Shown here: positions 4,646 to 45,180 of the stretch, piece by piece
Position numbering within the stretch: the first letter of the stretch is position 1
Layout of the letters: every line of letters begins with the position of its first letter
Made by a program: the position numbers and the translations under genes
DNA from: Escherichia coli
GTDB lineage: Bacteria; Pseudomonadota; Gammaproteobacteria; Enterobacterales; Enterobacteriaceae
DNA: 64,000 nt
NCBI RefSeq assembly: GCF_045037415.1
Contig: NZ_CP173440.1
Reading direction: 5' to 3' (one strand)
The notes under the pieces: model-generated
What the model was told of the DNA's origin: nothing
What the model saw: only the letters and a program-made list of their open reading frames with translations
Database searches by the model: none

Positions 4646-5851
4646 ATGACGAATAACCCTACCGATGACAGCAGACCATGGTCGGTCTTTCTTATTTTTC
4701 TGCGGCTTGGATTGACATCTTTTGGCGGCCCCATTGCGCACTTGGGCTACTTCCGCGCCGAATTTGTCACACGGCGGCGCTGGCTCTCCGAACGGAGCTA
4801 TGCTGACTTGGTCGCGCTTTGTCAGTTCTTGCCAGGGCCTGCAAGCAGCCAGGTCGGCATAGCGGTAGGACTGTCTCGGGCTGGATACAGCGGGGCGCTG
4901 GCTGCTTGGGCTGGCTTCACGCTGCCGTCTGCCATAGCCTTGATCCTTTTTGCGCTCGGCATCTCCAGCTATGGCGATTACGTCTCGCAGGGCGCGTTGC
5001 ATGGCTTAAAAGTGGTGGCTGTGGCCGTGGTCGCTCAAGCAGTATGGGGCATGGCGCGTAACCTATGCACGGATGGGCTGCGAGTCACCATCATGGCAAT
5101 TGCTACCTGCGTCGTTTTACTTGTGCCGTCCGCGTGGGGACAGGTTGGCGTGATTGCTATCGCAGGCATCGCAGGCCGGTTATTGTTCAAGCCAGCGAAA
5201 GTTGTTGAGCATGACCCCCTACCTATCACGGTCAGTCACCGGGCCGGCGTGCTTTGGCTCTCGCTGTTCTTTGTCTTGCTGATTGGCCTGCCGGTGTTGG
5301 CCGAACTGATGCCAAGTCAAACCATGGCAATGGTGGATTCCTTCTATCGTGTCGGATCACTGGTGTTCGGCGGTGGTCACGTTGTGCTGCCATTACTGCA
5401 AGCCGAAGTGGTGCCCTCCGGCTGGGTCAACAATGAATCCTTTCTCGCGGGGTACGGGGCAGCTCAAGCGGTGCCCGGCCCTTTGTTCACGTTCGCCGCG
5501 TTTCTTGGTGCCTCGATGAACACCGCCCCGTCGGGCTGGATCGGCGGCATTGTGTGTCTGCTGGCTATCTTCGCGCCCTCGTTCTTGCTGGTCGTCGGAT
5601 CAATGCCATTTTGGGAGCGTTTGCGCCGCAATACAGGCATCCAAGCTGCGCTGGCCGGGATCAATGCCGCTGTAGTCGGCTTGCTGCTGGCCGCGCTGTA
5701 TCAGCCTGTATGGACTAGCGCCATCTTTCAGCCGCAAGACTTCGGCTTGGCATTAGTTGCCCTTGTCGCACTTATGTTCTGGAAGCTCCCGCCGTGGCTG
5801 GTTGTCCTCGGTAGCGGTGCAGCTGGGTGGCTGTTGAGCGTCGCTCTGTGA
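4646..5851 (+). CDS. chrA: Chromate ion transporter ChrA
   Basis: 401-aa polytopic membrane protein MTNNPTDDSRPWSVFLIFLRLGLTSFGGPIAHLGYFRAEF... Confidence 0.9.
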   Translation: MTNNPTDDSRPWSVFLIFLRLGLTSFGGPIAHLGYFRAEFVTRRRWLSERSYADLVALCQFLPGPASSQVGIAVGLSRAGYSGALAAWAGFTLPSAIALILFALGISSYGDYVSQGALHGLKVVAVAVVAQAVWGMARNLCTDGLRVTIMAIATCVVLLVPSAWGQVGVIAIAGIAGRLLFKPAKVVEHDPLPITVSHRAGVLWLSLFFVLLIGLPVLAELMPSQTMAMVDSFYRVGSLVFGGGHVVLPLLQAEVVPSGWVNNESFLAGYGAAQAVPGPLFTFAAFLGASMNTAPSGWIGGIVCLLAIFAPSFLLVVGSMPFWERLRRNTGIQAALAGINAAVVGLLLAALYQPVWTSAIFQPQDFGLALVALVALMFWKLPPWLVVLGSGAAGWLLSVAL

Positions 5852-7650: not shown

Positions 7651-8235
7651 TTACGCATGTGCCTGGAGGAGTTGGAAATCGTCGTGTTCGGGAAACATTA
7701 AACACAGGATGGCAGCGATCTGAGCCAGCACATGATCAGCTAGCTCACCATCCGGATCGACGGCCCACTGCATCGTCGCGCCAGCGATGACCGAGTGCAG
7801 GAGCAACTCAGCTGCCGCAGGAGCACCTGGGGGCAGTCGCTTGCGGATCCCCTCCACCACCGCGCGGTTCCGCTGGATCGCAAGCGTGCGTAGCTCCGGC
7901 ACCTGGAGCTCGTACCAGGAGATGAGATAGTTCACCGAGAAGTCGTTGCGAGTGTTCATGCTCCGAACGAGCACCTGCAAAAATTCCCAGAGCCCTTGCG
8001 GCCCTGCGCCTATCGGTATCGCATTCAGGTAATGCCGCACCTGCTCGACGCCGCGCTCCATCATCCTCACCAGCAGCGTATCGCGGTTGGTGAAGCGCTG
8101 GATTAACGCTGCGCGGGAGAGCCCCACCTCCTTTGCTACTCCGCTGAGCGTGAACTCTATGGGACCGCAACGCTTCAGCACTACGGTGGCGGCCTCGAGT
8201 ACCTCGTCATCGGACTTGAGCTTGGGGCGGGGCAT
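7651..8235 (-). CDS. mphR(A): TetR-family repressor MphR(A)
   Basis: 194-aa product MPRPKLKSDDEVLEAATVVLKRCGPIEFTLSGVAKEVGLSRAALIQRF... Confidence 0.9.
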   Translation of the reverse strand: MPRPKLKSDDEVLEAATVVLKRCGPIEFTLSGVAKEVGLSRAALIQRFTNRDTLLVRMMERGVEQVRHYLNAIPIGAGPQGLWEFLQVLVRSMNTRNDFSVNYLISWYELQVPELRTLAIQRNRAVVEGIRKRLPPGAPAAAELLLHSVIAGATMQWAVDPDGELADHVLAQIAAILCLMFPEHDDFQLLQAHA

Positions 8236-9473
8236 CAGTGTTCACCTTCTGTATGGGTTGGGGCGGAGGCTGTGGCTGCCGCCGCCATTGTAGCAAATTG
8301 AAGACGGAGCGAGAGTAGAGCCACGAGCCCCGCAAACACGGCCGATACAACGAGGCCAGGGAGCGGACCAGCAAGGTCGACAAACGCGCCGGCCGCAAGC
8401 ATAACCATGGGCGAGGCTGACAGCATCACCGCCGAGACCGTGCCGAGTACCCGGCCGAGAAGTTCTGGCGGCGTGCGGTTGTAGATGGCAGCGTTGAGAA
8501 TGGGAGAGACTGAGCCGGTCAGCAGTCCCACGAGCGCGCCCAACAACATCAGCACCGGCACGCCTGGCAACTGTGAAAGCAGAAGCGAGCCCACCGCAGA
8601 GCCACAAAATGCCACCGCCAGCCAGTTCTGCGCTGATATCCGGGCGCCGACCGACGCATGAATGGCAATGCCAAGGAGACCACCAGCCCCCATCATTGAG
8701 GAGAACAGCCCGAGCTCTGCTACTTGGCGTCCTGCATCTACAAACAGCGCAGGCATGATGACGCTGCCGTTGGCGCCAACGATGCCCACGAAGATCATCA
8801 CTATACCAAAGAGAGGGCGCAGCAGGGGTTCGCTCCAGAGAAAAGCGACGCCGGCGCGCATGGAGAGAGTCGCCGTCGTGGTCATCGTCCGAGCGGCACG
8901 CGCGGGAAGCACCCACGCGCCGAGCAGACCTGCAAGGACGGAGCAGAACGCCGTCAGCCCGAGCGTTGGCGCAGCGCCAAGCAGGCCGATTGCGGCCCCC
9001 CCAAGGGCCGGGCCACCTAGAATCGCGACGTTCCCGATCACCGCTTTCAGTGACGAGACGCGCTCAACGGAGAGCCCGGCGACGTGGCCGAGTTTGGGCA
9101 GCTCACTGTCCTGCGCGGCCATACCGGGTGCGTCGAACGCGGCACCGAGCACCACGCAAGCGATCAGCCCAGTGTTCGAGAGGGCGCCAACGGCATCGAG
9201 CAGTGGGATGCTCGCCATGGCCACGCCGCCCACCACACCCGAGATCAATGCGACGGGCGCGCGCCCGAACCGATCGACGAGGCCACCACCAACCCACGCG
9301 CCGATGATGGTCGCGATGACGCTGCTAGCGGCCGTGGCGCCCGCCCAGGCCGCGCTCTTTGTATGAGACAGGACGAACCATGGAAGCGCGAGGGCCGCCA
9401 CCGCGTTGCCGATCCGGAAGAGAAAGGTCGCCGCGAACAGCGTCGCGAGCGGGCTATATCGACGTTCGCTCAT
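8235..9473 (-). CDS. mrx: MFS membrane protein Mrx of the mph(A) operon
   Basis: 412-aa hydrophobic product between mph(A) and mphR(A). Confidence 0.9.
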   Translation of the reverse strand: MSERRYSPLATLFAATFLFRIGNAVAALALPWFVLSHTKSAAWAGATAASSVIATIIGAWVGGGLVDRFGRAPVALISGVVGGVAMASIPLLDAVGALSNTGLIACVVLGAAFDAPGMAAQDSELPKLGHVAGLSVERVSSLKAVIGNVAILGGPALGGAAIGLLGAAPTLGLTAFCSVLAGLLGAWVLPARAARTMTTTATLSMRAGVAFLWSEPLLRPLFGIVMIFVGIVGANGSVIMPALFVDAGRQVAELGLFSSMMGAGGLLGIAIHASVGARISAQNWLAVAFCGSAVGSLLLSQLPGVPVLMLLGALVGLLTGSVSPILNAAIYNRTPPELLGRVLGTVSAVMLSASPMVMLAAGAFVDLAGPLPGLVVSAVFAGLVALLSLRLQFATMAAAATASAPTHTEGEH

Positions 9474-10375
9474 TCCGCTGCGGCGAGCTGCGCCTTCGCC
9501 GCAGCGAGGTACTCTTCGTTACCCGAGTCGAGGGCGAAGAGTGCGTAGGTGACCGCCCCGAACGCAAGGCGCTCCGCGATGTGGTGGGCGAGCCGCGGCC
9601 ACACCCGGCCACCGGCCGCTTCATACGTGAGGAGGAGCTTCGCGAGCCCCTCTTCACCAAAGACCATAAGGTGCGCGGCCATGTCGATGGCAGGGTCATC
9701 AACGCGGGCCTCGCTCCAGTCGATCATCCCGCTGACGCGCTCCGTGTTGTCGATGAGCACATGGCCCACGTAGAGATCGCCATGCACCACCACGGAGAAA
9801 TCTGGCCACGACGAATCGTCGTCGAGCCAGCGCTGCCACCGGTGGAGGCGCTTGTCGTTCACCACGAACTCGCGTCGGACGCGGTCAACGTCGTCGGCCA
9901 CCTTCTGACGGGCCTGCGTCGGTGTACGGATGAGCATCCCCGCATCCACGGCGGCGGAAATGGGGACGGCATGCAGGGCGGCGAGCGCGGTCGCGAAGCT
10001 CTCCGCGAAGACCTCCGAGTCCTGCGGCACGACCCAGTCGGGCGTGGACGAACCAGGCTGGATGACCATCGCAGTCGAGTCTTCGAGCATGGGATAGGCA
10101 ACGAGCTCGGCGTTGGCCACGCGCCAGTCCGGCACCGCGAACGGCAGGCGATTCTTGAGCATTGCCAGCACCCGCGCCTCTGGTTCGACCTTCGCGCTTA
10201 CCTCGGCTCGGCGCGGGATGCGCAGCACCCACCGACGTCCATCGTCGACGGTGGCGATCACGATCCTATAGTCGAGCCCAAGCTCATTGACAGTCAGCGG
10301 GCCATGGAGCTTGAGCCCATGTCGGGCTGCAAGTGCGTACAGTTGGGAGGTATCGGCGGTCGTGACTACGGTCAT
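9470..10375 (-). CDS. mph(A): Macrolide 2'-phosphotransferase Mph(A)
   Basis: 301-aa product MTVVTTADTSQLYALAARHGLKLHGPLTVNELGLDYRIVIATVDDGRRWVLRIPRR... Confidence 0.95.
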   Translation of the reverse strand: MTVVTTADTSQLYALAARHGLKLHGPLTVNELGLDYRIVIATVDDGRRWVLRIPRRAEVSAKVEPEARVLAMLKNRLPFAVPDWRVANAELVAYPMLEDSTAMVIQPGSSTPDWVVPQDSEVFAESFATALAALHAVPISAAVDAGMLIRTPTQARQKVADDVDRVRREFVVNDKRLHRWQRWLDDDSSWPDFSVVVHGDLYVGHVLIDNTERVSGMIDWSEARVDDPAIDMAAHLMVFGEEGLAKLLLTYEAAGGRVWPRLAHHIAERLAFGAVTYALFALDSGNEEYLAAAKAQLAAAE

Positions 10376-10444
10376 GATTCACTCCTGAGGGCTTGACGGG
10401 TTTAGCCACCTAAATGTAACAGTCACGTCGGTTATATTCAATCC

Positions 10445-11264
10445 GGCACTGTTGCAAAGTTAGCGATGAGGCAGCCTTTTGTCTTATTCAAAGGCCTTAC
10501 ATTTCAAAAACTCTGCTTACCAGGCGCATTTCGCCCAGGGGATCACCATAATAAAATGCTGAGGCCTGGCCTTTGCGTAGTGCACGCATCACCTCAATAC
10601 CTTTGATGGTGGCGTAAGCCGTCTTCATGGATTTAAATCCCAGCGTGGCGCCGATTATCCGTTTCAGTTTGCCATGATCGCATTCAATCACGTTGTTCCG
10701 GTACTTAATCTGTCGGTGTTCAACGTCAGACGGGCACCGGCCTTCGCGTTTGAGCAGAGCAAGCGCGCGACCATAGGCGGGCGCTTTATCCGTGTTGATG
10801 AATCGCGGGATCTGCCACTTCTTCACGTTGTTGAGGATTTTACCCAGAAACCGGTATGCAGCTTTGCTGTTACGACGGGAGGAGAGATAAAAATCGACAG
10901 TGCGGCCCCGGCTGTCGACGGCCCGGTACAGATACGCCCAGCGGCCATTGACCTTCACGTAGGTTTCATCCATGTGCCACGGGCAAAGATCGGAAGGGTT
11001 ACGCCAGTACCAGCGCAGCCGTTTTTCCATTTCAGGCGCATAACGCTGAACCCAGCGGTAAATCGTGGAGTGATCGACATTCACTCCGCGTTCAGCCAGC
11101 ATCTCCTGCAGCTCACGGTAACTGATGCCGTATTTGCAGTACCAGCGTACGGCCCACAGAATGATGTCACGCTGAAAATGCCGGCCTTTGAATGGGTTCA
11201 TGTGCAGCTCCATCAGCAAAAGGGGATGATAAGTTTATCACCACCGACTATTTGCAACAGTGCC
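10445..11264 (-). mobile_element. IS26 copy 1 (820 bp, 14-bp IRs GGCACTGTTGCAAA)
   Basis: IRs at both ends; Tnp26 ORF inside. Confidence 0.95.
10497..11219 (-). CDS. tnp26: IS26 transposase Tnp26 (ORF-track frame; native 234-aa start is 6 codons downstream)
   Basis: [41 protein letters not shown]... Confidence 0.95.
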   Translation of the reverse strand: MLMELHMNPFKGRHFQRDIILWAVRWYCKYGISYRELQEMLAERGVNVDHSTIYRWVQRYAPEMEKRLRWYWRNPSDLCPWHMDETYVKVNGRWAYLYRAVDSRGRTVDFYLSSRRNSKAAYRFLGKILNNVKKWQIPRFINTDKAPAYGRALALLKREGRCPSDVEHRQIKYRNNVIECDHGKLKRIIGATLGFKSMKTAYATIKGIEVMRALRKGQASAFYYGDPLGEMRLVSRVFEM

Positions 11265-11330
11265 GATAAAAATATATCATCATGAACAATAAAACTGTCT
11301 GCTTACATAAACAGTAATACAAGGGGTGTT

Positions 11331-12146
11331 ATGAGCCATATTCAACGGGAAACGTCTTGCTCGAGGCCGCGATTAAATTCCAACATGGATGCTGATTTAT
11401 ATGGGTATAAATGGGCTCGCGATAATGTCGGGCAATCAGGTGCGACAATCTATCGATTGTATGGGAAGCCCGATGCGCCAGAGTTGTTTCTGAAACATGG
11501 CAAAGGTAGCGTTGCCAATGATGTTACAGATGAGATGGTCAGACTAAACTGGCTGACGGAATTTATGCCTCTTCCGACCATCAAGCATTTTATCCGTACT
11601 CCTGATGATGCATGGTTACTCACCACTGCGATCCCCGGGAAAACAGCATTCCAGGTATTAGAAGAATATCCTGATTCAGGTGAAAATATTGTTGATGCGC
11701 TGGCAGTGTTCCTGCGCCGGTTGCATTCGATTCCTGTTTGTAATTGTCCTTTTAACAGTGATCGCGTATTTCGTCTCGCTCAGGCGCAATCACGAATGAA
11801 TAACGGTTTGGTTGATGCGAGTGATTTTGATGACGAGCGTAATGGCTGGCCTGTTGAACAAGTCTGGAAAGAAATGCATAAGCTTTTGCCATTCTCACCG
11901 GATTCAGTCGTCACTCATGGTGATTTCTCACTTGATAACCTTATTTTTGACGAGGGGAAATTAATAGGTTGTATTGATGTTGGACGAGTCGGAATCGCAG
12001 ACCGATACCAGGATCTTGCCATCCTATGGAACTGCCTCGGTGAGTTTTCTCCTTCATTACAGAAACGGCTTTTTCAAAAATATGGTATTGATAATCCTGA
12101 TATGAATAAATTGCAGTTTCATTTGATGCTCGATGAGTTTTTCTAA
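11331..12146 (+). CDS. aph(3')-Ia: Aminoglycoside 3'-phosphotransferase APH(3')-Ia (kanamycin/neomycin resistance)
   Basis: 271-aa product MSHIQRETSCSRPRLNSNMDADLYGYKWARDNVGQSGATIYRLYGKPDAPELFLKHG... Confidence 0.95.
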   Translation: MSHIQRETSCSRPRLNSNMDADLYGYKWARDNVGQSGATIYRLYGKPDAPELFLKHGKGSVANDVTDEMVRLNWLTEFMPLPTIKHFIRTPDDAWLLTTAIPGKTAFQVLEEYPDSGENIVDALAVFLRRLHSIPVCNCPFNSDRVFRLAQAQSRMNNGLVDASDFDDERNGWPVEQVWKEMHKLLPFSPDSVVTHGDFSLDNLIFDEGKLIGCIDVGRVGIADRYQDLAILWNCLGEFSPSLQKRLFQKYGIDNPDMNKLQFHLMLDEFF

Positions 12147-12283
12147 TCAGAATTGGTTAATTGGTTGTAACACTGGCAGAGCATTACGCTGACTTGACGG
12201 GACGGCGCTTCCCTACCCTCATGGCCGCCTCCCAGGAATCGACCCAGGTGCTTATCGTGGACATAATCCTTTACTCATAAATT

Positions 12284-13103
12284 GGCACTGTTGCAAAGTT
12301 AGCGATGAGGCAGCCTTTTGTCTTATTCAAAGGCCTTACATTTCAAAAACTCTGCTTACCAGGCGCATTTCGCCCAGGGGATCACCATAATAAAATGCTG
12401 AGGCCTGGCCTTTGCGTAGTGCACGCATCACCTCAATACCTTTGATGGTGGCGTAAGCCGTCTTCATGGATTTAAATCCCAGCGTGGCGCCGATTATCCG
12501 TTTCAGTTTGCCATGATCGCATTCAATCACGTTGTTCCGGTACTTAATCTGTCGGTGTTCAACGTCAGACGGGCACCGGCCTTCGCGTTTGAGCAGAGCA
12601 AGCGCGCGACCATAGGCGGGCGCTTTATCCGTGTTGATGAATCGCGGGATCTGCCACTTCTTCACGTTGTTGAGGATTTTACCCAGAAACCGGTATGCAG
12701 CTTTGCTGTTACGACGGGAGGAGAGATAAAAATCGACAGTGCGGCCCCGGCTGTCGACGGCCCGGTACAGATACGCCCAGCGGCCATTGACCTTCACGTA
12801 GGTTTCATCCATGTGCCACGGGCAAAGATCGGAAGGGTTACGCCAGTACCAGCGCAGCCGTTTTTCCATTTCAGGCGCATAACGCTGAACCCAGCGGTAA
12901 ATCGTGGAGTGATCGACATTCACTCCGCGTTCAGCCAGCATCTCCTGCAGCTCACGGTAACTGATGCCGTATTTGCAGTACCAGCGTACGGCCCACAGAA
13001 TGATGTCACGCTGAAAATGCCGGCCTTTGAATGGGTTCATGTGCAGCTCCATCAGCAAAAGGGGATGATAAGTTTATCACCACCGACTATTTGCAACAGT
13101 GCC
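12284..13103 (-). mobile_element. IS26 copy 2
   Basis: 820 bp with IRs; identical to copy 1. Confidence 0.95.
12336..13058 (-). CDS. tnp26: IS26 transposase Tnp26
   Basis: Identical 240-aa ORF-track product. Confidence 0.95.
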   Translation of the reverse strand: MLMELHMNPFKGRHFQRDIILWAVRWYCKYGISYRELQEMLAERGVNVDHSTIYRWVQRYAPEMEKRLRWYWRNPSDLCPWHMDETYVKVNGRWAYLYRAVDSRGRTVDFYLSSRRNSKAAYRFLGKILNNVKKWQIPRFINTDKAPAYGRALALLKREGRCPSDVEHRQIKYRNNVIECDHGKLKRIIGATLGFKSMKTAYATIKGIEVMRALRKGQASAFYYGDPLGEMRLVSRVFEM

Positions 13104-13433
13104 ATGCCGGTGAGCGCCCTGATCTGCTTCTGCACCTGTCCCGACGCCGACAGCGCCGAGCGCATCGCCACCGCGCTGGTGGCCGAGCGCCTGGCCGCCT
13201 GCGTCAACCTCCTGCCCGGCCTGCGTTCGGTCTATCGCTGGCAACGCAAGGTCGAGGCCGCGGCCGAGGTCCTGCTGCTGGTCAAGACCAGTGCCGAGGC
13301 CTACCCCGCCCTGCAGGAACGCCTGCGCCAACTGCATCCCTACGAACTCCCGGAGCTGCTCGCGGTCGAAGCCGCGTCCGGCCTGCCCGAATACCTGCAA
13401 TGGCTGGCCGCCGAGAGCCGACCGGTAAACTGA
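13104..13433 (+). CDS. cutA: Divalent-cation tolerance protein CutA, ATG directly abutting the IS26 end
   Basis: MPVSALICFCTCPDADSAERIATALVAERLAACVNLLPGLRSVYRWQRKVEAAAEVLLLVKT...HPYELPELL has the CutA signature; high GC. Confidence 0.85.
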   Translation: MPVSALICFCTCPDADSAERIATALVAERLAACVNLLPGLRSVYRWQRKVEAAAEVLLLVKTSAEAYPALQERLRQLHPYELPELLAVEAASGLPEYLQWLAAESRPVN

Positions 13434-13437
13434 GCCA

Positions 13438-14469
13438 ATGACCGCATCCACGATCCGCCTGCGCCGCTGGCTGGCCGGGCTCGCCCTGCTGCTTGCGCTG
13501 CCCGCGACCTCGGCCGTCGCCCAGGACTTCGAACTGCCGCCGGTCGACGAGGTCTTCGTCCTGTCCGCGCAGGCCACCGCGCCGGACCGCATCGAGGTGC
13601 GCTGGCGGATCGCCGACGGCTATTACCTGTACCGGCACCGCACCTCGGTCAAGGCCGATGCCGCCTTCACCGGCGCGACCATGGCGCTGCCGAAGGGCAA
13701 GGCCTACCGCGACGAATTCTTCGGCGACGTCGAAACCTACCGCAAGGAATTGCTCGGCACCCTCACCGGCACGCCCGCGGCCGGCGCGAGCGCGACCACC
13801 CTGACCGTGAAGTACCAGGGCTGCGCCGATGCCGGCGTGTGCTACCCGCCGCAGACCCGCACCCTGAAGGTCGCGTTGCCGGGCGAAGCGGGCGCTGGCG
13901 GCTTCGGCTGTAAGGCGCGCGGGCTGCATGATTATGTCGTCAAGAACGGCTCTGCCGATCATCCCAACGCCGAGGTGAAATTCGCACTGGGTGATGTGGT
14001 CAACACCATGATCGGCTGCACTAATGGTGAAACGATCATGCTGTGCCACGACACCTCGCTGCCGCGCCCCTATTCTCTCGGCTTTCGGGTGCAAGGCACC
14101 GAGGGGCTGTGGATGGACGTCAACAAGTCGATCTATCTGGAGGGCAAGAGCCCACAGCCGCACCGCTGGGAGCCTGCCGAGGGCTGGTTTGCGAAATACG
14201 ATCACCCGCTATGGAAACGCTACGCCGATCTGGCGGCAGGGGCCGGGCATGGCGGGATGGACTGGTTCGTGATCCACGCTTTTGTCGAGGCGCTGAAGGC
14301 CAAGGCCCCGATGCCAATCGACATTTACGACGCGCTGGCCTGGAGCGCGATCACGCCTCTGTCGGAACAATCGATTGCTGAGGGCAATCGCACGTTAGAT
14401 TTTCCCGACTTCACCCGAGGGCAGTGGCGCACCCGCAAGCCGATCTTTGCGCTGAACGACGCCTATTGA
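13438..14469 (+). CDS. dsbD: Fusion ORF: DsbD N-terminal domain joined in frame to the C-terminal part of a Gfo/Idh/MocA-like oxidoreductase (the 'tat'/'dsbC' ORF of blaNDM contexts)
   Basis: N-terminal half has DGYYLYR and TVKYQGCADAGVCYPP (nDsbD motifs); C-terminal half is unrelated to the DsbD membrane and thioredoxin domains; GC content drops near 13900. Confidence 0.65.
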   Translation: MTASTIRLRRWLAGLALLLALPATSAVAQDFELPPVDEVFVLSAQATAPDRIEVRWRIADGYYLYRHRTSVKADAAFTGATMALPKGKAYRDEFFGDVETYRKELLGTLTGTPAAGASATTLTVKYQGCADAGVCYPPQTRTLKVALPGEAGAGGFGCKARGLHDYVVKNGSADHPNAEVKFALGDVVNTMIGCTNGETIMLCHDTSLPRPYSLGFRVQGTEGLWMDVNKSIYLEGKSPQPHRWEPAEGWFAKYDHPLWKRYADLAAGAGHGGMDWFVIHAFVEALKAKAPMPIDIYDALAWSAITPLSEQSIAEGNRTLDFPDFTRGQWRTRKPIFALNDAY

Positions 14470-14479
14470 TCGACGCGAT

Positions 14480-15118
14480 TTAGGCCAAGCGCACCGCAAA
14501 GGCGAAATTGGTAATCTTGTCGGTATCCTTGACGCCCGGCGCGCTTTCGACGCCGCTGGAGGTATCGACCAGCGGCGCTCCGGTGCGCGCAATCGCCTCG
14601 GCAACATTCGTCGGATTTAGCCCGCCTGCCAGCCCCCACGGCAAGGCACCGCGATATCCGGCCAGCAGCGACCAGTCGAACGCCAACCCCATGCCGCCGG
14701 GCAGCGCGCCTTTGGGGGTCTTGGCGTCGAACAAGATCAAGTCCGCCGCCCCGGCATAGGCTGCGGCGCGTGCGACATCGCTGGCGCTGGCGACGGGCAG
14801 CGCCTTCCACACCGGCTTGCCAAACCGCGCGCGCAACTGGGCCACGCGTTCGGGCGATTCCGAACCGTGCAGCTGCAGCGCGTTCAGCTTGGCTGCCACC
14901 AGTGCGTCGGCGATGACAGCATCATCCGCATCGACGAACAAACCGACCATGGCGATCTGGCCAGCTGCGCGCGATGTCAAAGCGCCCGCGACATTCGACG
15001 TAACCGCACGGGGCGACGCTGGATAGAACACCAACCCGGCATAGTCCGCCCGCGCCGCGATGGTCGCATCGAGCGCCTCGGGTGTGCTGATCCCGCAAAT
15101 CTTGATTTTCGCGGGCAT
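14480..15118 (-). CDS. trpF: Phosphoribosylanthranilate isomerase TrpF
   Basis: 212-aa product MPAKIKICGISTPEALDATIAARADYAGLVFYPASPRAV... Confidence 0.9.
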   Translation of the reverse strand: MPAKIKICGISTPEALDATIAARADYAGLVFYPASPRAVTSNVAGALTSRAAGQIAMVGLFVDADDAVIADALVAAKLNALQLHGSESPERVAQLRARFGKPVWKALPVASASDVARAAAYAGAADLILFDAKTPKGALPGGMGLAFDWSLLAGYRGALPWGLAGGLNPTNVAEAIARTGAPLVDTSSGVESAPGVKDTDKITNFAFAVRLA

Positions 15119-15122
15119 GCGG

Positions 15123-15488
15123 TCAGTCGGGGTTCTGGATCAGCCGCACCAGCGTGCAGTCGGGATCGATCAGGTAGCCGATCCTCAGGCCGCTCGCCTC
15201 CAGTTGCGGAGCTTTGAAGCGCGGCCAGCCGGTGCTTTTTTCCTCGGCTCCCGCCGCGTTCACCAATGCCACCATGGCATCGAGATCATCCAACCGCAGG
15301 CAACAGCCGAACGAGCTCGTAGCTGGGTCGAGGTCAGGATAGGGGAAGAATTCGAGCTGCAAACCGCCGCGCTGCAGGATCATCCAGCCGCGATCCTTCC
15401 AACTCGTCGCAAAGCCCAGCTTCGCATAAAACGCCTCTGTCACATCGAAATCGCGCGATGGCAGATTGGGGGTGACGTGGTCAGCCAT
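15123..15488 (-). CDS. ble: Bleomycin-binding resistance protein BleMBL
   Basis: 121-aa glyoxalase/bleomycin-resistance fold protein immediately downstream of blaNDM. Confidence 0.9.
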   Translation of the reverse strand: MADHVTPNLPSRDFDVTEAFYAKLGFATSWKDRGWMILQRGGLQLEFFPYPDLDPATSSFGCCLRLDDLDAMVALVNAAGAEEKSTGWPRFKAPQLEASGLRIGYLIDPDCTLVRLIQNPD

Positions 15489-15491
15489 GGC

Positions 15492-16304
15492 TCAGCGCAG
15501 CTTGTCGGCCATGCGGGCCGTATGAGTGATTGCGGCGCGGCTATCGGGGGCGGAATGGCTCATCACGATCATGCTGGCCTTGGGGAACGCCGCACCAAAC
15601 GCGCGCGCTGACGCGGCGTAGTGCTCAGTGTCGGCATCACCGAGATTGCCGAGCGACTTGGCCTTGCTGTCCTTGATCAGGCAGCCACCAAAAGCGATGT
15701 CGGTGCCGTCGATCCCAACGGTGATATTGTCACTGGTGTGGCCGGGGCCGGGGTAAAATACCTTGAGCGGGCCAAAGTTGGGCGCGGTTGCTGGTTCGAC
15801 CCAGCCATTGGCGGCGAAAGTCAGGCTGTGTTGCGCCGCAACCATCCCCTCTTGCGGGGCAAGCTGGTTCGACAACGCATTGGCATAAGTCGCAATCCCC
15901 GCCGCATGCAGCGCGTCCATACCGCCCATCTTGTCCTGATGCGCGTGAGTCACCACCGCCAGCGCGACCGGCAGGTTGATCTCCTGCTTGATCCAGTTGA
16001 GGATCTGGGCGGTCTGGTCATCGGTCCAGGCGGTATCGACCACCAGCACGCGGCCGCCATCCCTGACGATCAAACCGTTGGAAGCGACTGCCCCGAAACC
16101 CGGCATGTCGAGATAGGAAGTGTGCTGCCAGACATTCGGTGCGAGCTGGCGGAAAACCAGATCGCCAAACCGTTGGTCGCCAGTTTCCATTTGCTGGCCA
16201 ATCGTCGGGCGGATTTCACCGGGCATGCACCCGCTCAGCATCAATGCAGCGGCTAATGCGGTGCTCAGCTTCGCGACCGGGTGCATAATATTGGGCAATT
16301 CCAT
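15492..16304 (-). CDS. blaNDM-1: New Delhi metallo-beta-lactamase NDM-1 (carbapenemase)
   Basis: [64 protein letters not shown]...MADKLR; diagnostic residues P28, V88, D95, D130, E152, M154, A233 are the NDM-1 states. The ORF-track entry carries one extra Met. Confidence 0.97.
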
Positions 16305-16379
16305 CAAGTTTTCCTTTTATTCAGCATTAAAAACCCCGCAAATGCGAGGCCTAGTAAATAGATGATCTTAATTTGGTTC

Positions 16380-16408
16380 ACTGTAGCAAAAATATGGGGC
16401 GAATTCAA
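16380..16408 (-). promoter_or_regulatory. blaNDM promoter: -35 TTGAAT (16403-16408) in the ISAba125 end, 17-bp spacer, -10 TACAGT (16380-16385)
   Basis: Hexamers read on the minus strand ~76-104 bp upstream of the blaNDM start. Confidence 0.65.
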
Positions 16409-16494
16409 ACATGAGGTGCGACAGTTTCAAAAGCCATATGATAATCAACAAGCTGAGCAAATTTCTCTAATGGTGTAAGCCAATCTAACGCCTT

Positions 16495-17630
16495 TCTAAA
16501 TAACTGATCCTAATACCGCTACACTTTAGCCAGCCCGTGTTTTCCACCGGGGAATGGGCTGACGGTATCCATAAAGTGATGAACCTTTTTCAACAGATGC
16601 CACATTGAACGGCACTGGTGATTTCGGGTTATTGTCTCATGAAGCGCCTGCCACAACCGTTCGACATGATTGACCCATGGCGAGTAAACCGGCTGATAAA
16701 TGACCCTGAACTTCTGGTTTGCTTTCAGCCAGCGCAACGTTTCACGACTTTTGTGGATAATGTAGTTATCGACAATGAGCGTAATCGTTTTTGCCCGCCG
16801 GTATGTCGCCTTAAGATGTTTTAACAGTCTGATAAATAAACATGAACCTTTACTGTTTCCACCTACGTAGCTGACTTTTCCCGTACCGCTGTGCAGCGCA
16901 CCGGCAAGATAGTACTTTTCATTCTGGCCCGGTGTGACAACACGTTTTTGCTGCCCGCGTAACTGCCAGTCAGCACCGATTTTCGGGTTGAGATGAATAT
17001 CCACTTCATCTTCGTAAAACACGGGATTTTCCGCACTGCATTTCGCCAGTGCTTCATGGATAGCAACCATTTTTTCTTCTTTGTGTGGGTCACGGATACG
17101 CAGTGTCGGCGCTGCTCTGCGCCATACCAGCCCGGCTGCAGGTAACCATCTCCGGATGGTTGAGGCATGTAGCGGACAACCGGTGACATCACGGATTTTT
17201 ATCGCCAGCAGTTCGGTACTCCAGCGGGAACGCTGATAACCGAAATCGCCGGGAGAATGCTTCACAAGCTCACGCAGCAATGCGCAAATATGTTCGAACG
17301 GCCAGCGCCTGCCACGTCCTGACGGTAATGACTTCAGGCCTTCAGCACCAGACAGAGTGAACCAGTTAATCCAGCGACCAATCGATGAGCGTGCACAGCA
17401 GAGTGTTCTGGCCACATGACTGACGCGCTCGCCCCGGTGCAACATCAGCATGGCGGTCAGTCTGCGGGCATAATTTTTATCGCGTGTTTTATGGATAGCT
17501 TTCTGCATCAGGCGTCGTTCGTCACGAGGTATTGGTGCTATGATCGACATCGCTCAGTCCGTTTGGTGATTTGTTTTGATTTGGCGATTGATCAGATCGC
17601 ACAATTCGGGCTGAGTTCCCTCAAAGTGAT
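16495..17630 (-). mobile_element. IS630-family element (ISEc33/IS630-like) inserted in ISAba125; ends approximate
   Basis: Contains a complete 343-aa IS630-type transposase; ISAba125 sequence resumes on both sides. Confidence 0.45.
16519..17550 (-). CDS. IS630-family transposase
   Basis: 343-aa product MSIIAPIPRDERRLMQKAIHKTRDKNYARRLTAMLMLHRGERVSHVARTL... Confidence 0.85.
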   Translation of the reverse strand: MSIIAPIPRDERRLMQKAIHKTRDKNYARRLTAMLMLHRGERVSHVARTLCCARSSIGRWINWFTLSGAEGLKSLPSGRGRRWPFEHICALLRELVKHSPGDFGYQRSRWSTELLAIKIRDVTGCPLHASTIRRWLPAAGLVWRRAAPTLRIRDPHKEEKMVAIHEALAKCSAENPVFYEDEVDIHLNPKIGADWQLRGQQKRVVTPGQNEKYYLAGALHSGTGKVSYVGGNSKGSCLFIRLLKHLKATYRRAKTITLIVDNYIIHKSRETLRWLKANQKFRVIYQPVYSPWVNHVERLWQALHETITRNHQCRSMWHLLKKVHHFMDTVSPFPGGKHGLAKV

Positions 17631-17646
17631 CTACTATTCTGCACAG

Positions 17647-18585
17647 CTATTTAGGACGAGTATTCAGTGACATGGCAACTTGATTTAAATAATGCTGATC
17701 TGCCTGATTTAAATCAATCCCTTTAGGTAAATATTGCCTAATTAAACCATTCATATTTTCGCATGTGCCTTTTTGCCAGGGTGAATGTGGGTCACAGAAA
17801 TATACATCTATGCCTAAATCTTCTTCGAGTATTTTATGTTCTGACATCTCACGTCCACGGTCATAGGTCAACGTTTTACGCAGTTCTGCAGGTAAATATT
17901 TCAGAGCTTCAGTTAAAGCCTTGCGCACTGATTCTGCCTTTGCATCAGGTAATGTTGCCAAGATACAGAGCCGTGTATTTCGTTCAATAAGTGTTGCTAT
18001 CGAACTTTTATTGTCTTTACCTTTAATTAAATCAGCTTCCCAATGACCCGGTATTTTTCTTTCTTGAACTTCGGCTGGGCGCTCATGAATAGTTTTAATA
18101 TCCTGTAATATAGAATCTTTTTTAGGTTCACCGTTAGCTTTTCGCTTTTTATTTTCATGACGTAGACAGGATAATAAGTCTTTTTTCAACTCACCCTTTG
18201 GTAATGCTCGTATCGTTGAATAAATCGTTGTATGGCTTACATTCATTGTTTGATCCAAATCAGGAAATGTCTTTAAACGCTTTGCTATTTGCTGAGGAGA
18301 CCATAAACAACGGATCGCTTCAACAATAAATTTCCAGAGGATTGAATCGATTTTGAGTTTTCTGTGACCACGTCTACGTCTAGCGAAGGTGTTATCAGAA
18401 GCATATCGAGCTTGATAAACGTCATTGATGCTATTTCTTTTAAGCTCACGATAGATCGTACTAGGATGTCTTTTAATGAGTTCAGCAAATTTTCTGGCTG
18501 AAAAGCCTTCTTTTCTTGACTCAAGCATTAATGCAGTACGATCTTCAAAGTTAAGATGATGGTATGACAATTTTATATACTCCAT
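17647..18585 (-). CDS. ISAba125 (IS30-family) transposase
   Basis: 312-aa product MEYIKLSYHHLNFEDRTALMLESRKEGFSARKFAELIKRHPSTIYREL... Confidence 0.85.
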   Translation of the reverse strand: MEYIKLSYHHLNFEDRTALMLESRKEGFSARKFAELIKRHPSTIYRELKRNSINDVYQARYASDNTFARRRRGHRKLKIDSILWKFIVEAIRCLWSPQQIAKRLKTFPDLDQTMNVSHTTIYSTIRALPKGELKKDLLSCLRHENKKRKANGEPKKDSILQDIKTIHERPAEVQERKIPGHWEADLIKGKDNKSSIATLIERNTRLCILATLPDAKAESVRKALTEALKYLPAELRKTLTYDRGREMSEHKILEEDLGIDVYFCDPHSPWQKGTCENMNGLIRQYLPKGIDLNQADQHYLNQVAMSLNTRPK

Positions 18586-18736
18586 AAACCCTTTAAATTA
18601 ATTAGGTGGTTTATGTCGCACTTCAAGTTTTACTCTGCCAACTTTAAATCAGTGGCTCCACTAACACTCTTCACTTATTTATTTAAAATTTAGCGACGTT
18701 AAAAGACAATTAAGTATTTTTAGATAATGCTTAGAA

Positions 18737-19516: not shown

Positions 19517-19621
19517 CAAGTTTTCCTTTTATTCAGCATTAAAAACCCCGCAAATGCGAGAGAGGTGGTCCCACTTGTTTGAACAACTAAAAGCGTATTT
19601 ATAAGTGATATTCCGCTCTAG

Positions 19622-19864: not shown

Positions 19865-19886
19865 TTCATAACAATACCTGCTGACT

Positions 19887-21219: not shown

Positions 21220-22614
21220 ATGATGCAACTGACGCTCCAGATAGTCATCACCGATGAATCAGGCTCCAGTCGAACGGAGGAACTGATGACAATCCAGAAA
21301 TCAGGGGAAACCCGGAACGACATCGGATTATCGGTGTCAGAATCCAAGCTGTTGCTGAATACGGTCCAGCAGTCGGTGGTCCAGCTGCAGGCAGACGAAT
21401 ATACTCAACACCATATCCGGTGCCCTCACTGCCTTGCTGCGCGCAGAATCAAAGGCAAACAGAAAATACGGTACCGGACGCTGTTTGGCGTTATTCCGGT
21501 ATCCGGGCTTCGGGTGTACCGGTGCCGTTGTGAAGAGAGTGATACAAAGACAGTCAGTTTGCTCAGCGACTGGGCCGGCGATTATTCTCACCCGGCACTG
21601 AAATATATTGAAACCCGCTGGGCCTCGATGATCTCCTATGAAATGACGACTCGTCTGCTGAAAGATATTCTGCCGGTGGGCCACAGCCTGAATGCCTCAA
21701 CGGTGAGGAATCATTTATGCCAGGTGGCGCAGCGTCTTGACGCTGAGGCTGAAGCTCATTCAGGTTTTCTTTCCGGCTGCCCCCGCGACTGGGGGAACCT
21801 GCCCAGGCCAGGAAAACCGCTTGTGGTGGGTATAGATGGTGGTTATGTTCGCGATCGGGATGACAAAAAGCGTAATTTTGAAATTATTGCCGGGAAGTCT
21901 TTTTCCGTTGGTGCGCCTGCTGACACCCGCCGCTTCGGTTTTGTTCAGAAGGATGACTGTCATCCGGAACGCAGGCTCATGACCCACCTTTCAGCGCAGG
22001 GAATGCAGGCCAACCAGCAGATATTTTTTCTGTCCGACGGCGCGGATAATCTCAGGGACCTCCAGTTCGGTATGTACCCTGAGTCAACGCATGTGCTGGA
22101 CTGGTTTCATATCACCATGAGGCTGAAGGTGCTCATGCAATATGCCCGGGGACTGCTGGTATCAGATCCAGAGGCGGGGAGTAAAGTTCTGGCACTGCTG
22201 GAAAGCATTAAACGATATCTCTGGCATGGCAATGTTGTCGCTGCGCTGGAACATATTGATAATTGCGTTATGTATTGCGATGACCCTGAACTCAGCTATC
22301 CTAGCCTGAAATCCCTGCAAAAACATCTGGATGAAATGTATACCTACATCCGGAATAATAAGATGATGATCCCAAACTACGGCGAAATGCGTCGGTACGG
22401 AGAGCCGGTATCAACCGCGTTTGTGGAATCCACGATCAATGAAGTGATCGCCAGACGAATGGCCAAAAAGCAGCAGATGCAGTGGAGCAGAAAAGGGGCT
22501 CATTATTTGTTACAGACCCGGACCGCCGTTTTGAATAACGAACTGCAGGATAAATTTGTCTGCTGGTATCCGGGTTTTCAAAGTGACGGGAAGGGACCAG
22601 CGATGGCAGCATAG
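21220..22614 (+). CDS. ISKra4-family transposase (ISKpn19-like)
   Basis: 464-aa product; assignment from recalled family features and the ISKpn19-tnpR fragment-qnrS1 context. Confidence 0.7.
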   Translation: MMQLTLQIVITDESGSSRTEELMTIQKSGETRNDIGLSVSESKLLLNTVQQSVVQLQADEYTQHHIRCPHCLAARRIKGKQKIRYRTLFGVIPVSGLRVYRCRCEESDTKTVSLLSDWAGDYSHPALKYIETRWASMISYEMTTRLLKDILPVGHSLNASTVRNHLCQVAQRLDAEAEAHSGFLSGCPRDWGNLPRPGKPLVVGIDGGYVRDRDDKKRNFEIIAGKSFSVGAPADTRRFGFVQKDDCHPERRLMTHLSAQGMQANQQIFFLSDGADNLRDLQFGMYPESTHVLDWFHITMRLKVLMQYARGLLVSDPEAGSKVLALLESIKRYLWHGNVVAALEHIDNCVMYCDDPELSYPSLKSLQKHLDEMYTYIRNNKMMIPNYGEMRRYGEPVSTAFVESTINEVIARRMAKKQQMQWSRKGAHYLLQTRTAVLNNELQDKFVCWYPGFQSDGKGPAMAA

Positions 22615-23075: not shown

Positions 23076-23393
23076 TTTGAACGGACGGAAAAATCTGGGG
23101 TTCCGGCGTAGTACCCCTATCACCTCCACATTTTTGCAACAGTGCCTTATAAATGGCAGCCTTATGTTTACTTGCCAAGATGGGCTACCATATGATGTTT
23201 TATACTGAGCAATATTAATATTATCTTTAATGGAAAAATTAAGCCCACTAAGTGACCCACTGCTATATGGCTCTATTGTGAAGACGCCTGAGGGTAAAAA
23301 TTTATACATGGTTGTCCCTATGTCTATTATTGCAAGGTTGACAATATTATTCGTTTTATAAATTTGAGCGTTTAAAATCACACATCAAAGCAA

Positions 23394-27709: not shown

Positions 27710-28529
27710 GGCACTGTTGCAAAGTTAGCGATGAGGCAGCCTTTTGTCTTATTCAAAGGCCTTACATTTCAAAAACTCTGCTTACCAGGCGCATTTCGCC
27801 CAGGGGATCACCATAATAAAATGCTGAGGCCTGGCCTTTGCGTAGTGCACGCATCACCTCAATACCTTTGATGGTGGCGTAAGCCGTCTTCATGGATTTA
27901 AATCCCAGCGTGGCGTTGATTATCCGTTTCAGTTTGCCATGATCGCATTCAATCACGTTGTTCCGGTACTTAATCTGTCGGTGTTCAACGTCAGACGGGC
28001 ACCGGCCTTCGCGTTTGAGCAGAGCAAGCGCGCGACCATAGGCGGGCGCTTTATCCGTGTTGATGAATCGCGGGATCTGCCACTTCTTCACGTTGTTGAG
28101 GATTTTACCCAGAAACCGGTATGCAGCTTTGCTGTTACGACGGGAGGAGAGATAAAAATCGACAGTGCGGCCCCGGCTGTCGACGGCCAGGTACAGATAC
28201 GCCCAGCGGCCATTGACCTTCACGTAGGTTTCATCCATGTGCCACGGGCAAAGATCGGAAGGGTTACGCCAGTACCAGCGCAGCCGTTTTTCCATTTCAG
28301 GCGCATAACGCTGAACCCAGCGGTAAATCGTGGAGTGATCGACATTCACTCCGCGTTCAGCCAGCATCTCCTGCAGCTCACGGTAACTGATGCCGTATTT
28401 GCAGTACCAGCGTACGGCCCACAGAATGATGTCACGCTGAAAATGCCGGCCTTTGAATGGGTTCATGTGCAGCTCCATCAGCAAAAGGGGATGATAAGTT
28501 TATCACCACCGACTATTTGCAACAGTGCC
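27710..28529 (-). mobile_element. IS26 copy 3, variant encoding Tnp26 with G184N and R93L
   Basis: 820 bp with IRs; nucleotide differences from the other copies are cag vs ccg at ~28189 and tt vs cc at ~27916-27917. Confidence 0.95.
27762..28484 (-). CDS. tnp26: IS26-variant transposase (G184N, R93L in the 234-aa numbering)
   Basis: Product has AYLYLAVDS and KRIINATLGF where the other four copies have AYLYRAVDS and [10 protein letters not shown]. Confidence 0.9.
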   Translation of the reverse strand: MLMELHMNPFKGRHFQRDIILWAVRWYCKYGISYRELQEMLAERGVNVDHSTIYRWVQRYAPEMEKRLRWYWRNPSDLCPWHMDETYVKVNGRWAYLYLAVDSRGRTVDFYLSSRRNSKAAYRFLGKILNNVKKWQIPRFINTDKAPAYGRALALLKREGRCPSDVEHRQIKYRNNVIECDHGKLKRIINATLGFKSMKTAYATIKGIEVMRALRKGQASAFYYGDPLGEMRLVSRVFEM

Positions 28530-35952: not shown

Positions 35953-36772
35953 GGCACTGTTGCAAATAGTCGGTGGTGATAAACTTATCATCCCCTTTTG
36001 CTGATGGAGCTGCACATGAACCCATTCAAAGGCCGGCATTTTCAGCGTGACATCATTCTGTGGGCCGTACGCTGGTACTGCAAATACGGCATCAGTTACC
36101 GTGAGCTGCAGGAGATGCTGGCTGAACGCGGAGTGAATGTCGATCACTCCACGATTTACCGCTGGGTTCAGCGTTATGCGCCTGAAATGGAAAAACGGCT
36201 GCGCTGGTACTGGCGTAACCCTTCCGATCTTTGCCCGTGGCACATGGATGAAACCTACGTGAAGGTCAATGGCCGCTGGGCGTATCTGTACCGGGCCGTC
36301 GACAGCCGGGGCCGCACTGTCGATTTTTATCTCTCCTCCCGTCGTAACAGCAAAGCTGCATACCGGTTTCTGGGTAAAATCCTCAACAACGTGAAGAAGT
36401 GGCAGATCCCGCGATTCATCAACACGGATAAAGCGCCCGCCTATGGTCGCGCGCTTGCTCTGCTCAAACGCGAAGGCCGGTGCCCGTCTGACGTTGAACA
36501 CCGACAGATTAAGTACCGGAACAACGTGATTGAATGCGATCATGGCAAACTGAAACGGATAATCGGCGCCACGCTGGGATTTAAATCCATGAAGACGGCT
36601 TACGCCACCATCAAAGGTATTGAGGTGATGCGTGCACTACGCAAAGGCCAGGCCTCAGCATTTTATTATGGTGATCCCCTGGGCGAAATGCGCCTGGTAA
36701 GCAGAGTTTTTGAAATGTAAGGCCTTTGAATAAGACAAAAGGCTGCCTCATCGCTAACTTTGCAACAGTGCC
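35953..36772 (+). mobile_element. IS26 copy 4 (opposite orientation to copies 1-3 and 5)
   Basis: 820 bp with IRs. Confidence 0.95.
35998..36720 (+). CDS. tnp26: IS26 transposase Tnp26
   Basis: Identical to the copy 1 product. Confidence 0.95.
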   Translation: MLMELHMNPFKGRHFQRDIILWAVRWYCKYGISYRELQEMLAERGVNVDHSTIYRWVQRYAPEMEKRLRWYWRNPSDLCPWHMDETYVKVNGRWAYLYRAVDSRGRTVDFYLSSRRNSKAAYRFLGKILNNVKKWQIPRFINTDKAPAYGRALALLKREGRCPSDVEHRQIKYRNNVIECDHGKLKRIIGATLGFKSMKTAYATIKGIEVMRALRKGQASAFYYGDPLGEMRLVSRVFEM

Positions 36773-42842: not shown

Positions 42843-43662
42843 GGCACTGTTGCAAAGTTAGCGATGAGGCAGCCTTTTGTCTTATTCAAAGGCCTTACAT
42901 TTCAAAAACTCTGCTTACCAGGCGCATTTCGCCCAGGGGATCACCATAATAAAATGCTGAGGCCTGGCCTTTGCGTAGTGCACGCATCACCTCAATACCT
43001 TTGATGGTGGCGTAAGCCGTCTTCATGGATTTAAATCCCAGCGTGGCGCCGATTATCCGTTTCAGTTTGCCATGATCGCATTCAATCACGTTGTTCCGGT
43101 ACTTAATCTGTCGGTGTTCAACGTCAGACGGGCACCGGCCTTCGCGTTTGAGCAGAGCAAGCGCGCGACCATAGGCGGGCGCTTTATCCGTGTTGATGAA
43201 TCGCGGGATCTGCCACTTCTTCACGTTGTTGAGGATTTTACCCAGAAACCGGTATGCAGCTTTGCTGTTACGACGGGAGGAGAGATAAAAATCGACAGTG
43301 CGGCCCCGGCTGTCGACGGCCCGGTACAGATACGCCCAGCGGCCATTGACCTTCACGTAGGTTTCATCCATGTGCCACGGGCAAAGATCGGAAGGGTTAC
43401 GCCAGTACCAGCGCAGCCGTTTTTCCATTTCAGGCGCATAACGCTGAACCCAGCGGTAAATCGTGGAGTGATCGACATTCACTCCGCGTTCAGCCAGCAT
43501 CTCCTGCAGCTCACGGTAACTGATGCCGTATTTGCAGTACCAGCGTACGGCCCACAGAATGATGTCACGCTGAAAATGCCGGCCTTTGAATGGGTTCATG
43601 TGCAGCTCCATCAGCAAAAGGGGATGATAAGTTTATCACCACCGACTATTTGCAACAGTGCC
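42843..43662 (-). mobile_element. IS26 copy 5
   Basis: 820 bp with IRs. Confidence 0.95.
42895..43617 (-). CDS. tnp26: IS26 transposase Tnp26
   Basis: Identical to the copy 1 product. Confidence 0.95.
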
Positions 43663-45180
43663 CTTTCGACTACCTCCCCTCAAAGCCATATCACGTACGT
43701 TAATCCTGACTTCATTAAAATCAGTGGTTTCACTGAGGAAGAACTATTAGGCCAGCCTCACAACATCGTAAGACACCCAGATATGCCGCCTGCTGCATTT
43801 GAGCATATGTGGAGTACATTAAAATCTGGCCGCTCATGGATGGGGCTAGTAAAAAATCGCTGTAAAAATGGCGACCACTATTGGGTAAGTGCTTATGTAA
43901 CGCCAATAGCTAAGAATGGTTCGATTGTTGAATACCAGTCTGTAAGGACCAAGCCTGAACCTGAGCAGGTTTTGGCTGCGGAAAAATTATATGCTCAATT
44001 GAGAAGCGGGAAGGCCGCGAGGCCGAAATTGGCTGCTAGCTTTTCCGTGAAAATACTCTTGCTCATATGGGGTAGTATTATATCAAGCGCAATGGCTGCC
44101 GGCATGCTTACTGATACATCAATAAGCAGCTTATTGTTAGCCACTTTAATGTCAGGAAGCTTAAGCTCTGTTAGTGTTTTGGCTATTCTCTCTCCTCTTG
44201 GAAGACTGGTTGAAAGAGCCAGGAATATTTCCAATAACCCATTAAGTCAATCCCTCTACACTGGGCGCACCGATGAGTTTGGCCAAATAGAGTTTGCTTT
44301 ACGAATGATGCAAGCTGAAACAGGCGCCATAGTAGGTCGCATAGGTGATGCATCAAATCGGCTTAGCGAACACACCCGAGGCCTACTAAAGGATATTGAG
44401 TCAAGCAATGTACTTACAGTTGAGCAGCAGGCAGAGACAGATCAAATAGCAACGGCAGTAAACCAAATGGTGGCAAGCATTCAAGAGGTTGCGAGCAATG
44501 CACAGCATGCTGCAGATGCGGCCGGAAGAGCAGACACTGAGACGGCATCTGGCCAGCGTCTGGTAGCCCACACAAGCCAGTCAATCACTGCCCTTGAAGG
44601 TGAAATTAGGCAAGCCACTCAGGTTATTCATGAGCTTGAAGGTCAAAGTAACGAGATATCAAAAGTTCTTGACGTTATACGAGGGATCGCCGAGCAAACG
44701 AATTTGTTGGCACTCAACGCAGCAATTGAGGCCGCGCGTGCTGGTGAGCAGGGGCGTGGTTTTGCTGTTGTCGCCGATGAGGTTCGCAGTCTTGCTGCTC
44801 GCACACAGCAATCGACAACGGATATTCAAAGCATGATCAGCGCTCTACAAGAGCGAGCGCAATCCGCTGTTACAGTCATGGAGCAAAGTAGTCGGCAAGC
44901 GCACACGAGTGTAGCTCACGCAGAGGAAGCAGCTACAGCTCTTGATGGAATTGGCCAACGCGTTAACGAAATTACCGACATGAACGCGCAAATAGCGACT
45001 GCGGTCGAGCAGCAGGGAGCAGTAAGTGAAGACATAAACCGCAGTATTATCAATATACGCGATGCTGCTGATACCAATGTACAGACCGGGCAGAATAATT
45101 TGCAAAGTGCGAAATCTGTCGCTCAGTTAACTAGCGCTCTGAGCGAACTGGCAAAACAGTTTTGGGAAAAACGAGGATAA
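43663..45180 (+). pseudogene. Methyl-accepting chemotaxis protein with PAS domain (Aer-like), 5'-truncated by IS26
   Basis: After the IS26 end the frame reads a PAS-like segment ([41 protein letters not shown]), two TM helices, then an MCP signalling domain ([35 protein letters not shown]). Confidence 0.75.

Follow-up and report, generated by a model that had tools for sequence, protein, structure and literature searches.

The window, a 64,000-nucleotide stretch of an Escherichia coli contig (NZ_CP173440.1), carries from about 8.2 to 19.5 kb a typical multiresistance mosaic, in which mrx, mph(A), IS26, aphA1, IS26, cutA and a dsbD ORF are followed by the blaNDM-1 side and, beyond blaNDM-1, by ISSpu2 inside an ISAba125 remnant, a copy of ISAba125 and aph(3')-VI. 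The features around the point at which IS26 meets cutA are collected in Table 1.

Table 1. Features flanking the IS26|cutA junction (window coordinates).
Feature	Position	Strand	Basis
Upstream IS26 and aphA1 segment; with IS26 12284..13103 forms IS26-aphA1-IS26, Tn4352-like	10445..12283	+	ORFs, IRs
aphA1 hybrid promoter TTGCAA-17-TATCAT (-35 in upstream IRL, -10 in flank)	11252..11280	+	scan
aphA1, pointing towards cutA	11331..12146	+	ORF
IS26, complete 820-bp copy	12284..13103	- (tnp26 strand)	exact 14-bp IRs at both ends
tnp26 transposase gene, 234 aa, ATG at 13040	12336..13040	-	Pfam DDE_Tnp_IS240 (PF13610), E 2.4e-48
IS26 IRL (tnp26-proximal), touching cutA	13090..13103	-	exact 14-bp IR
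Palindromic TTGCAA, outward -35 in IRL, no usable -10 partner	13091..13096	+	slot scoring
cutA, complete CDS, 109 aa, native start codon, no native upstream sequence	13104..13433	+	PGAP, Pfam, homologues
Chimeric 'dsbD/tat' ORF, 343 aa, starting 4 nt past the cutA stop	13438..14469	+	Pfam; identical to Tn125
trpF	14480..15118	-	ORF; identical to pNDM-BJ01 Tn125
bleMBL	15123..15488	-	ORF; identical to pNDM-BJ01 Tn125
blaNDM-1	15492..16304	-	ORF; identical to pNDM-BJ01 Tn125

The IS26 copy next to cutA is bounded by the 14-bp terminal repeat GGCACTGTTGCAAA, at 12284-12297 on the plus strand and at 13090-13103 on the minus strand; the repeat occurs 11 times in the window, where chance alone would give 0.01. 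The transposase of a homologous IS26 copy is annotated as 'IS26 family transposase' (WP_001067855.1). The last IS26 base, 13103, is directly followed by the cutA ATG (13104-13106), so that the junction reads ...TTTGCAACAGTGCC|ATGCCGGTGAGC... in the window, where the intact Tn125 of pNDM-BJ01 reads ...GCCGCTACCCT|ATGCCGGTG at the start of cutA. Since the base at position -1 is C in the window and T in Tn125, the breakpoint is unambiguous and lies at -1/+1 of the start codon. From the ATG onward, the window matches Tn125 over 3395 uninterrupted bases, to 16499. Both the inverted repeats and the break of the Tn125 alignment at the A of the ATG thus bear out the coordinates that a first-pass annotation of this DNA had given for the end of IS26 and the start of cutA. 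The abutting end, described there as the right inverted repeat, is 'right' solely in window coordinates: tnp26 starts 64 nt inside it, which makes it the tnp26-proximal IRL. The claim that the native sequence upstream of cutA has been lost, ribosome-binding site included, agrees with the Tn125 comparison, in which every native upstream base is replaced by IS26. The exact hit on a start codon, roughly a 1 in 500 event for one junction in a 523-bp stretch, is a post hoc coincidence; as a pattern, the placement of this single historical junction is without statistical meaning.

The same cutA CDS (WP_004201171.1) is given by PGAP in pNDM-1fa and pNDM-BJ01, the CutA1 domain is complete (PF03091, 123 bits, residues 7-103 of 109, profile positions 2-98 of 99), and Met-1 is nearly invariant in 22 homologues (69-87% identity; mostly 107-113 aa). 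Gene calls, domain and homologue alignment together show that ATG 13104-13106 is the real start of cutA. An in-frame ATG lying 26 codons further upstream in Tn125 was considered as a native alternative start and rejected, the homologues beginning at the annotated Met. A 116-aa CutA form (P0003, 'MSARPAGSPVSAL...') was likewise considered as a second break at the start codon and rejected, as its contig carries intact groES-groEL upstream; this form represents a different start or gene call within the native arrangement.

Downstream of cutA, the 'dsbD' ORF matches DsbD_N over residues 32-145 (E 6e-30) and Glyco_hydro_109_C over residues 156-246 (profile positions 92-186 of 187), and by these domain matches it is a chimera, in which the DsbD N-terminal domain is joined to part of a C-terminal domain of GH109 type. 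The trpF-bleMBL-blaNDM-1 genes are convergent with cutA-dsbD, and the junction lies 2388 bp past the stop codon of blaNDM and 3201 bp from its start codon. The expression of blaNDM-1 is unaffected by the junction, the gene lying on the opposite strand with its own ISAba125-derived promoter. No terminator-like site was seen between trpF and IS26; transcripts running on from the blaNDM operon would cross dsbD and cutA in antisense and reach IS26 in the sense direction of tnp26.

The stretch 13104..16499 is identical to Tn125, with cutA, dsbD, trpF, bleMBL, blaNDM and the ISAba125 remnant collinear, whereas the 193-bp cutA/groES spacer, groES, groEL and ISCR27 of Tn125 are replaced by IS26. A complete Tn125 with two intact ISAba125 copies is not present in the window, where ISSpu2 interrupts the ISAba125 side. 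In Tn125, groES and groEL lie on the strand opposite cutA, with the 193-bp spacer between the divergent genes. What cutA lost is thus a spacer rather than a co-transcribed upstream operon, and groES-groEL never supplied it with read-through. The first-pass annotation had pointed to blaNDM contexts retaining groES-groEL upstream of cutA as the comparison to make. A simple scan of the native spacer (pNDM-BJ01 4808..5000) found no sigma-70-like promoter towards cutA. Because this spacer shows no cutA-facing promoter in that scan and offers only a weak Shine-Dalgarno sequence, the Xanthomonadales-like cutA and dsbD genes may never have been well expressed in Enterobacterales. Only towards groES does the spacer show a strong sigma-70-like promoter (TTGGCA-18-TAAAAT, its second hexamer preceded by TG); a hairpin resembling a terminator lies at 4911-4896 on the groES strand.

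Hybrid promoters are a known means by which IS26 activates neighbouring genes: the -35 hexamer TTGCAA of the inverted repeat is combined with a -10 hexamer in the flank (PMC7986276, PMC12802963). TTGCAA is palindromic and stops 7 nt short of the tip of IS26; this position requires the -10 hexamer to sit at +10 to +17 of the flank and places the transcription start at about +25. For the copy at 13091-13096, the -10 slot falls at 13113-13120 (spacings of 16-18 nt), inside the cutA CDS, and the three hexamers AGCGCC, GCGCCC and CGCCCT match TATAAT at 0, 0 and 1 of 6 positions, respectively. With the -10 slot and the predicted transcription start both inside the CDS, the IS26 hybrid promoter cannot, on this geometry, serve cutA. 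The hybrid promoters of aphA1 in Tn4352-type structures, of aphA7 and of blaSHV-2a use the same IS26 end and the same outward TTGCAA; at cutA, by contrast, no matching -10 hexamer occupies the slot, and the slot itself is coding. The geometry implies that an IS26 hybrid promoter can serve only genes that start further than about 25 nt past the end of the element, and a gene flush with that end is therefore not rescuable in this way.

What this end of IS26 can do is seen in an internal positive control, the identical end that lies 1.8 kb upstream of the junction. There, the -10 hexamer of the aphA1 promoter, TATCAT, scores 5/6 and the aphA1 ATG lies 67 nt from the end of IS26 (11264), in line with the hybrid promoter described for aphA1 pseudo-compound transposons, a group of related structures that differ downstream of aphA1 (PMC12802963). 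The two IS26 copies 10445..11264 and 12284..13103 are in direct orientation, and a single G stands next to the upstream IRL (...GTGCC|GATAAAA), a feature of Tn4352 rather than of Tn4352B (PMC4676283). The central aphA1 segment measures 1019 bp, and it is on the direct IS26 copies and the single G that the possible likeness of the structure to Tn4352 is based. The single G at the IS end is as in the stable form of Tn4352.

Translation signals at cutA were assessed by pairing with the 16S anti-Shine-Dalgarno sequence. The best duplex in the 25 nt before the cutA ATG reaches -1.7 kcal/mol; by comparison, the native Tn125 context gives -5.0, aphA1 gives -10.3, and random 25-mers drawn from the window have a median of -4.1. 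By this measure, Shine-Dalgarno pairing before the cutA ATG is essentially absent. A sigma-70-type scan found no promoter-like site facing cutA inside or near IS26 other than a weak one to the left of the element, at 12239-12267; the consensus scans used here are simple and cover sigma-70-type promoters and intrinsic terminators only. As judged by these predictions, cutA and the dsbD remnant stand here without initiation signals of their own, be it a promoter or a Shine-Dalgarno sequence, and the CutA protein is expected to be poorly made or not at all. The description of the cutA-dsbD pair as 'probably silent' in the first-pass annotation is plausible on these grounds. The same annotation held that any expression would need read-out from IS26: since the hybrid promoter is unusable, expression of cutA would indeed need transcription that crosses IS26, but the element's own outward hexamer cannot provide it. 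Our literature search on cutA or dsbD transcripts in blaNDM contexts returned no relevant paper.

The junction is not confined to the window. An identical IS26|cutA junction (100% identity) is present in at least 97 complete plasmids of PLSDB, mostly from K. pneumoniae; a plasmid was counted if a single alignment took in at least 80% of a 501-bp query that runs across the junction. In K. pneumoniae, plasmids of IncFIB(pQil) type and IncHI1B/IncFIB hybrids, such as pNDM-1fa (CP014757) and phvKpST395_NDM1_1657 (CP072809), carry it as part of a blaNDM-1 module bounded by IS26, described in PMC8226487 and PMC10913492. The best-matching plasmids are 100% identical to the window from IS26 through cutA, dsbD, trpF, ble, blaNDM-1 and ISSpu2 to aph(3')-VI; the window differs from that module in its left flank, the IS26-aphA1 unit with mph(A)-mrx further left, and no PLSDB record covers at least 80% of window positions 8000-20000. 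At least three different left flanks adjoin the unchanged junction: a backbone with a DUF2913 gene in IncFIB, IncFII and IncFII/IncR plasmids, intI1-dfrA5 in an IncFIB/IncHI1B/IncR plasmid, and the aphA1 segment in the window. A fixed junction with varying left flanks, together with the missing target duplication and reciprocal junction described below, is the usual signature of an IS26 turned into a recombination and translocation boundary, and the identity of the junctions suggests that they share a single origin.

Published structures agree with this picture. IS26 has been reported downstream of ble-iso-tat-dct, with ISAba125-ISSpu2-ISAba125 upstream (PMC8226487), and following bleMBL-iso-DsbD-cutA in ST147 (PMC10913492). 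Contig flanks of 3000-3300 bp downstream of blaNDM end almost exclusively in the left IR of IS26 (PMC8894482), a range into which the 3201 bp of the present junction fits if the distances there are assumed to run from the blaNDM start codon. Two further papers, PMC13175049 and PMC6929489, deal with other structures and contain nothing on the IS26|cutA junction. The junction is thus an already known, widespread and ordinary rearrangement scar.

Other scars lie on the same side of blaNDM. The IncX3 (46-kb) and IncF blaNDM plasmids carry delta-cutA junctions that keep dsbD, trpF and ble, and the name 'IS26-delta-cutA' has been used for IncX3 plasmids (PMC9377402). Their breaks fall inside cutA (positions 201, 255 and others) and destroy the gene, whereas the cutA CDS of the window is complete. 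Among PLSDB plasmids, we found at least five cutA breakpoints, at positions 1, 201, 233, 255 and 282 of the gene, of which only position 1 was confirmed here as an IS26 junction. Some part of cutA is carried by 1637 plasmids; 711 of them have at least 80% of the gene and 926 only part of it. Partial copies being the more numerous, blaNDM does not need cutA in order to spread.

Taken together, these data lead us to read the junction as a fossil IS26 breakpoint rather than a regulatory device, with cutA and the chimeric dsbD as passenger DNA, a reading to which we assign a probability of about 80%. It builds on the observed structure, its identity with Tn125, its recurrence and the absent promoter and Shine-Dalgarno signals, from which we infer the following order of events. 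An IS26-mediated event would have removed the groES-groEL-ISCR27 side of a Tn125-derived blaNDM-1 region: either IS26 inserted with target ATGCCGGT and one flank was lost afterwards, or an adjacent deletion took place. The IS26 IRL would thereby have come to abut the first base of cutA. This copy of IS26 would then have become the boundary of a 7.7-kb module made of IS26, cutA, the dsbD remnant, trpF, ble, blaNDM-1, the ISAba125 remnant with ISSpu2, and aph(3')-VI, which may have moved between plasmids by IS26 reactions or by homologous recombination. In the window, the IS26-aphA1 unit would have joined this module later, and any cutA RNA would stem from read-through across IS26.

The flanks of this IS26 copy fit such a history. 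An 8-bp target duplication is absent, the left flank being CATAAATT and the right flank ATGCCGGT. Such a duplication is expected only for a simple, unrearranged IS26 insertion and is not needed for membership of IS26. The hypothetical reciprocal junction, in which the native spacer would be followed by ATGCCGGT and the IS26 IRR, is covered by no PLSDB record, so that an original simple insertion could not be demonstrated. The missing duplication and the missing reciprocal junction are consistent with a later IS26-mediated rearrangement. As a fossil breakpoint, the junction can serve to mark the lineage of one widespread blaNDM-1 module bounded by IS26, and matters little otherwise: cutA and the dsbD remnant hitch-hike, and blaNDM-1 spreads equally with a promoterless but intact cutA, with a truncated one, or with groES-groEL.

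The strongest challenge to passenger status is that cutA-dsbD is still transcribed, by read-through that starts at the aphA1 promoter or in another left flank and crosses IS26 antisense to tnp26, yielding some CutA or a CutA extended by 13 residues. The aphA1 gene and its promoter at 11252-11280, the nearest candidate source of such read-through, run in the same direction as cutA, and neither strand of 11200-14600 showed a site resembling an intrinsic terminator. Antisense to tnp26, an open frame extends from 12417 to the end of IS26 and is in frame with cutA (mechanically called ORF 12513..13433, 306 aa), and an in-frame ATG inside IS26 at 13065, 13 codons upstream of cutA, is touched by AAGGGG (duplex of -6.6 kcal/mol). 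That motif, however, has zero spacing to the ATG, the cutA ATG itself has next to no Shine-Dalgarno pairing, and about 950 nt of untranslated RNA would separate the aphA1 stop codon from cutA. Rho-dependent termination, as well as collision with transcription of tnp26, would threaten such RNA. Moreover, the left flank differs in most carriers of the junction, so read-through would be incidental to the context. We therefore regard continued transcription of the pair as rather doubtful, and meaningful production of CutA as unlikely on these predictions. That IS26 acts more generally as a portable translational fusion partner, through the 13-residue CutA extension encoded by IS26 from ATG 13065 or through a longer fusion made from read-through RNA, is highly improbable.

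Selection could also be invoked for the exact placement, an intact cutA flush with IS26 being beneficial, for instance through IS26-driven expression of metal tolerance. In its favour, not a base of the cutA CDS is missing and successful K. pneumoniae plasmids carry the junction, but geometry excludes the hybrid promoter, Shine-Dalgarno pairing is lacking, the adjacent dsbD is a truncated chimera, and cutA is dispensable, as the predominance of partial copies and the breaks at 201, 233, 255 and 282 attest. Hitch-hiking with blaNDM-1 explains the success of the junction, and we give selection a very slim chance. Finally, repeats such as the five IS26 copies of the window, of which four are identical, are a classic source of assembly errors, but the junction recurs base for base in the independently sequenced complete plasmids counted above, which span several replicon types, and an assembly or annotation artefact is hence hardly conceivable.

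Besides the junction, the window offers further observations on IS26. The copy 12284..13103 is identical to those at 10445..11264, 35953..36772 (inverted) and 42843..43662. The remaining copy, 27710..28529, is 3 bases off the other four, giving Tnp26 the changes R93L and G184N; the latter is presumably the substitution reported for an IS26 variant of increased activity. A lone IS6-family-like end lies at 23117..23146 on the minus strand, about 530 bp downstream of an ISKra4-family (ISKpn19-like) transposase gene (21220..22614); its first 14 bases are those of the IS26 IR and 24 of its first 30 bases match IS26, and neither an IS26 body nor a partner end follows it. The reading frame antisense to tnp26 is open up to the tip of the IRL, so that mechanically called ORFs exit IS26 into the neighbouring DNA. 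At copy 42843..43662 it continues, without a change of frame, into a truncated PAS/methyl-accepting chemotaxis gene (ORF 43072..45180, 702 aa), and database proteins labelled 'partial CutA' with IS26-antisense N-termini (P0002: 27 member sequences, 39 contigs) are an annotation artefact of the same kind.

The resistance mosaic extends well beyond the junction. From 1900 to 47700, the window is densely occupied by sul1, an IS110-family transposase gene, chrA, mrx-mph(A), Tn3-family tnpA fragments, an Acinetobacter-type repM fragment, mph(E)-msr(E), an IS4-family transposase gene, sul2 and an ISCR element. It also contains an Rmt-family 16S rRNA methyltransferase gene that falls below the cut-offs of the named subfamilies and is presumably armA.
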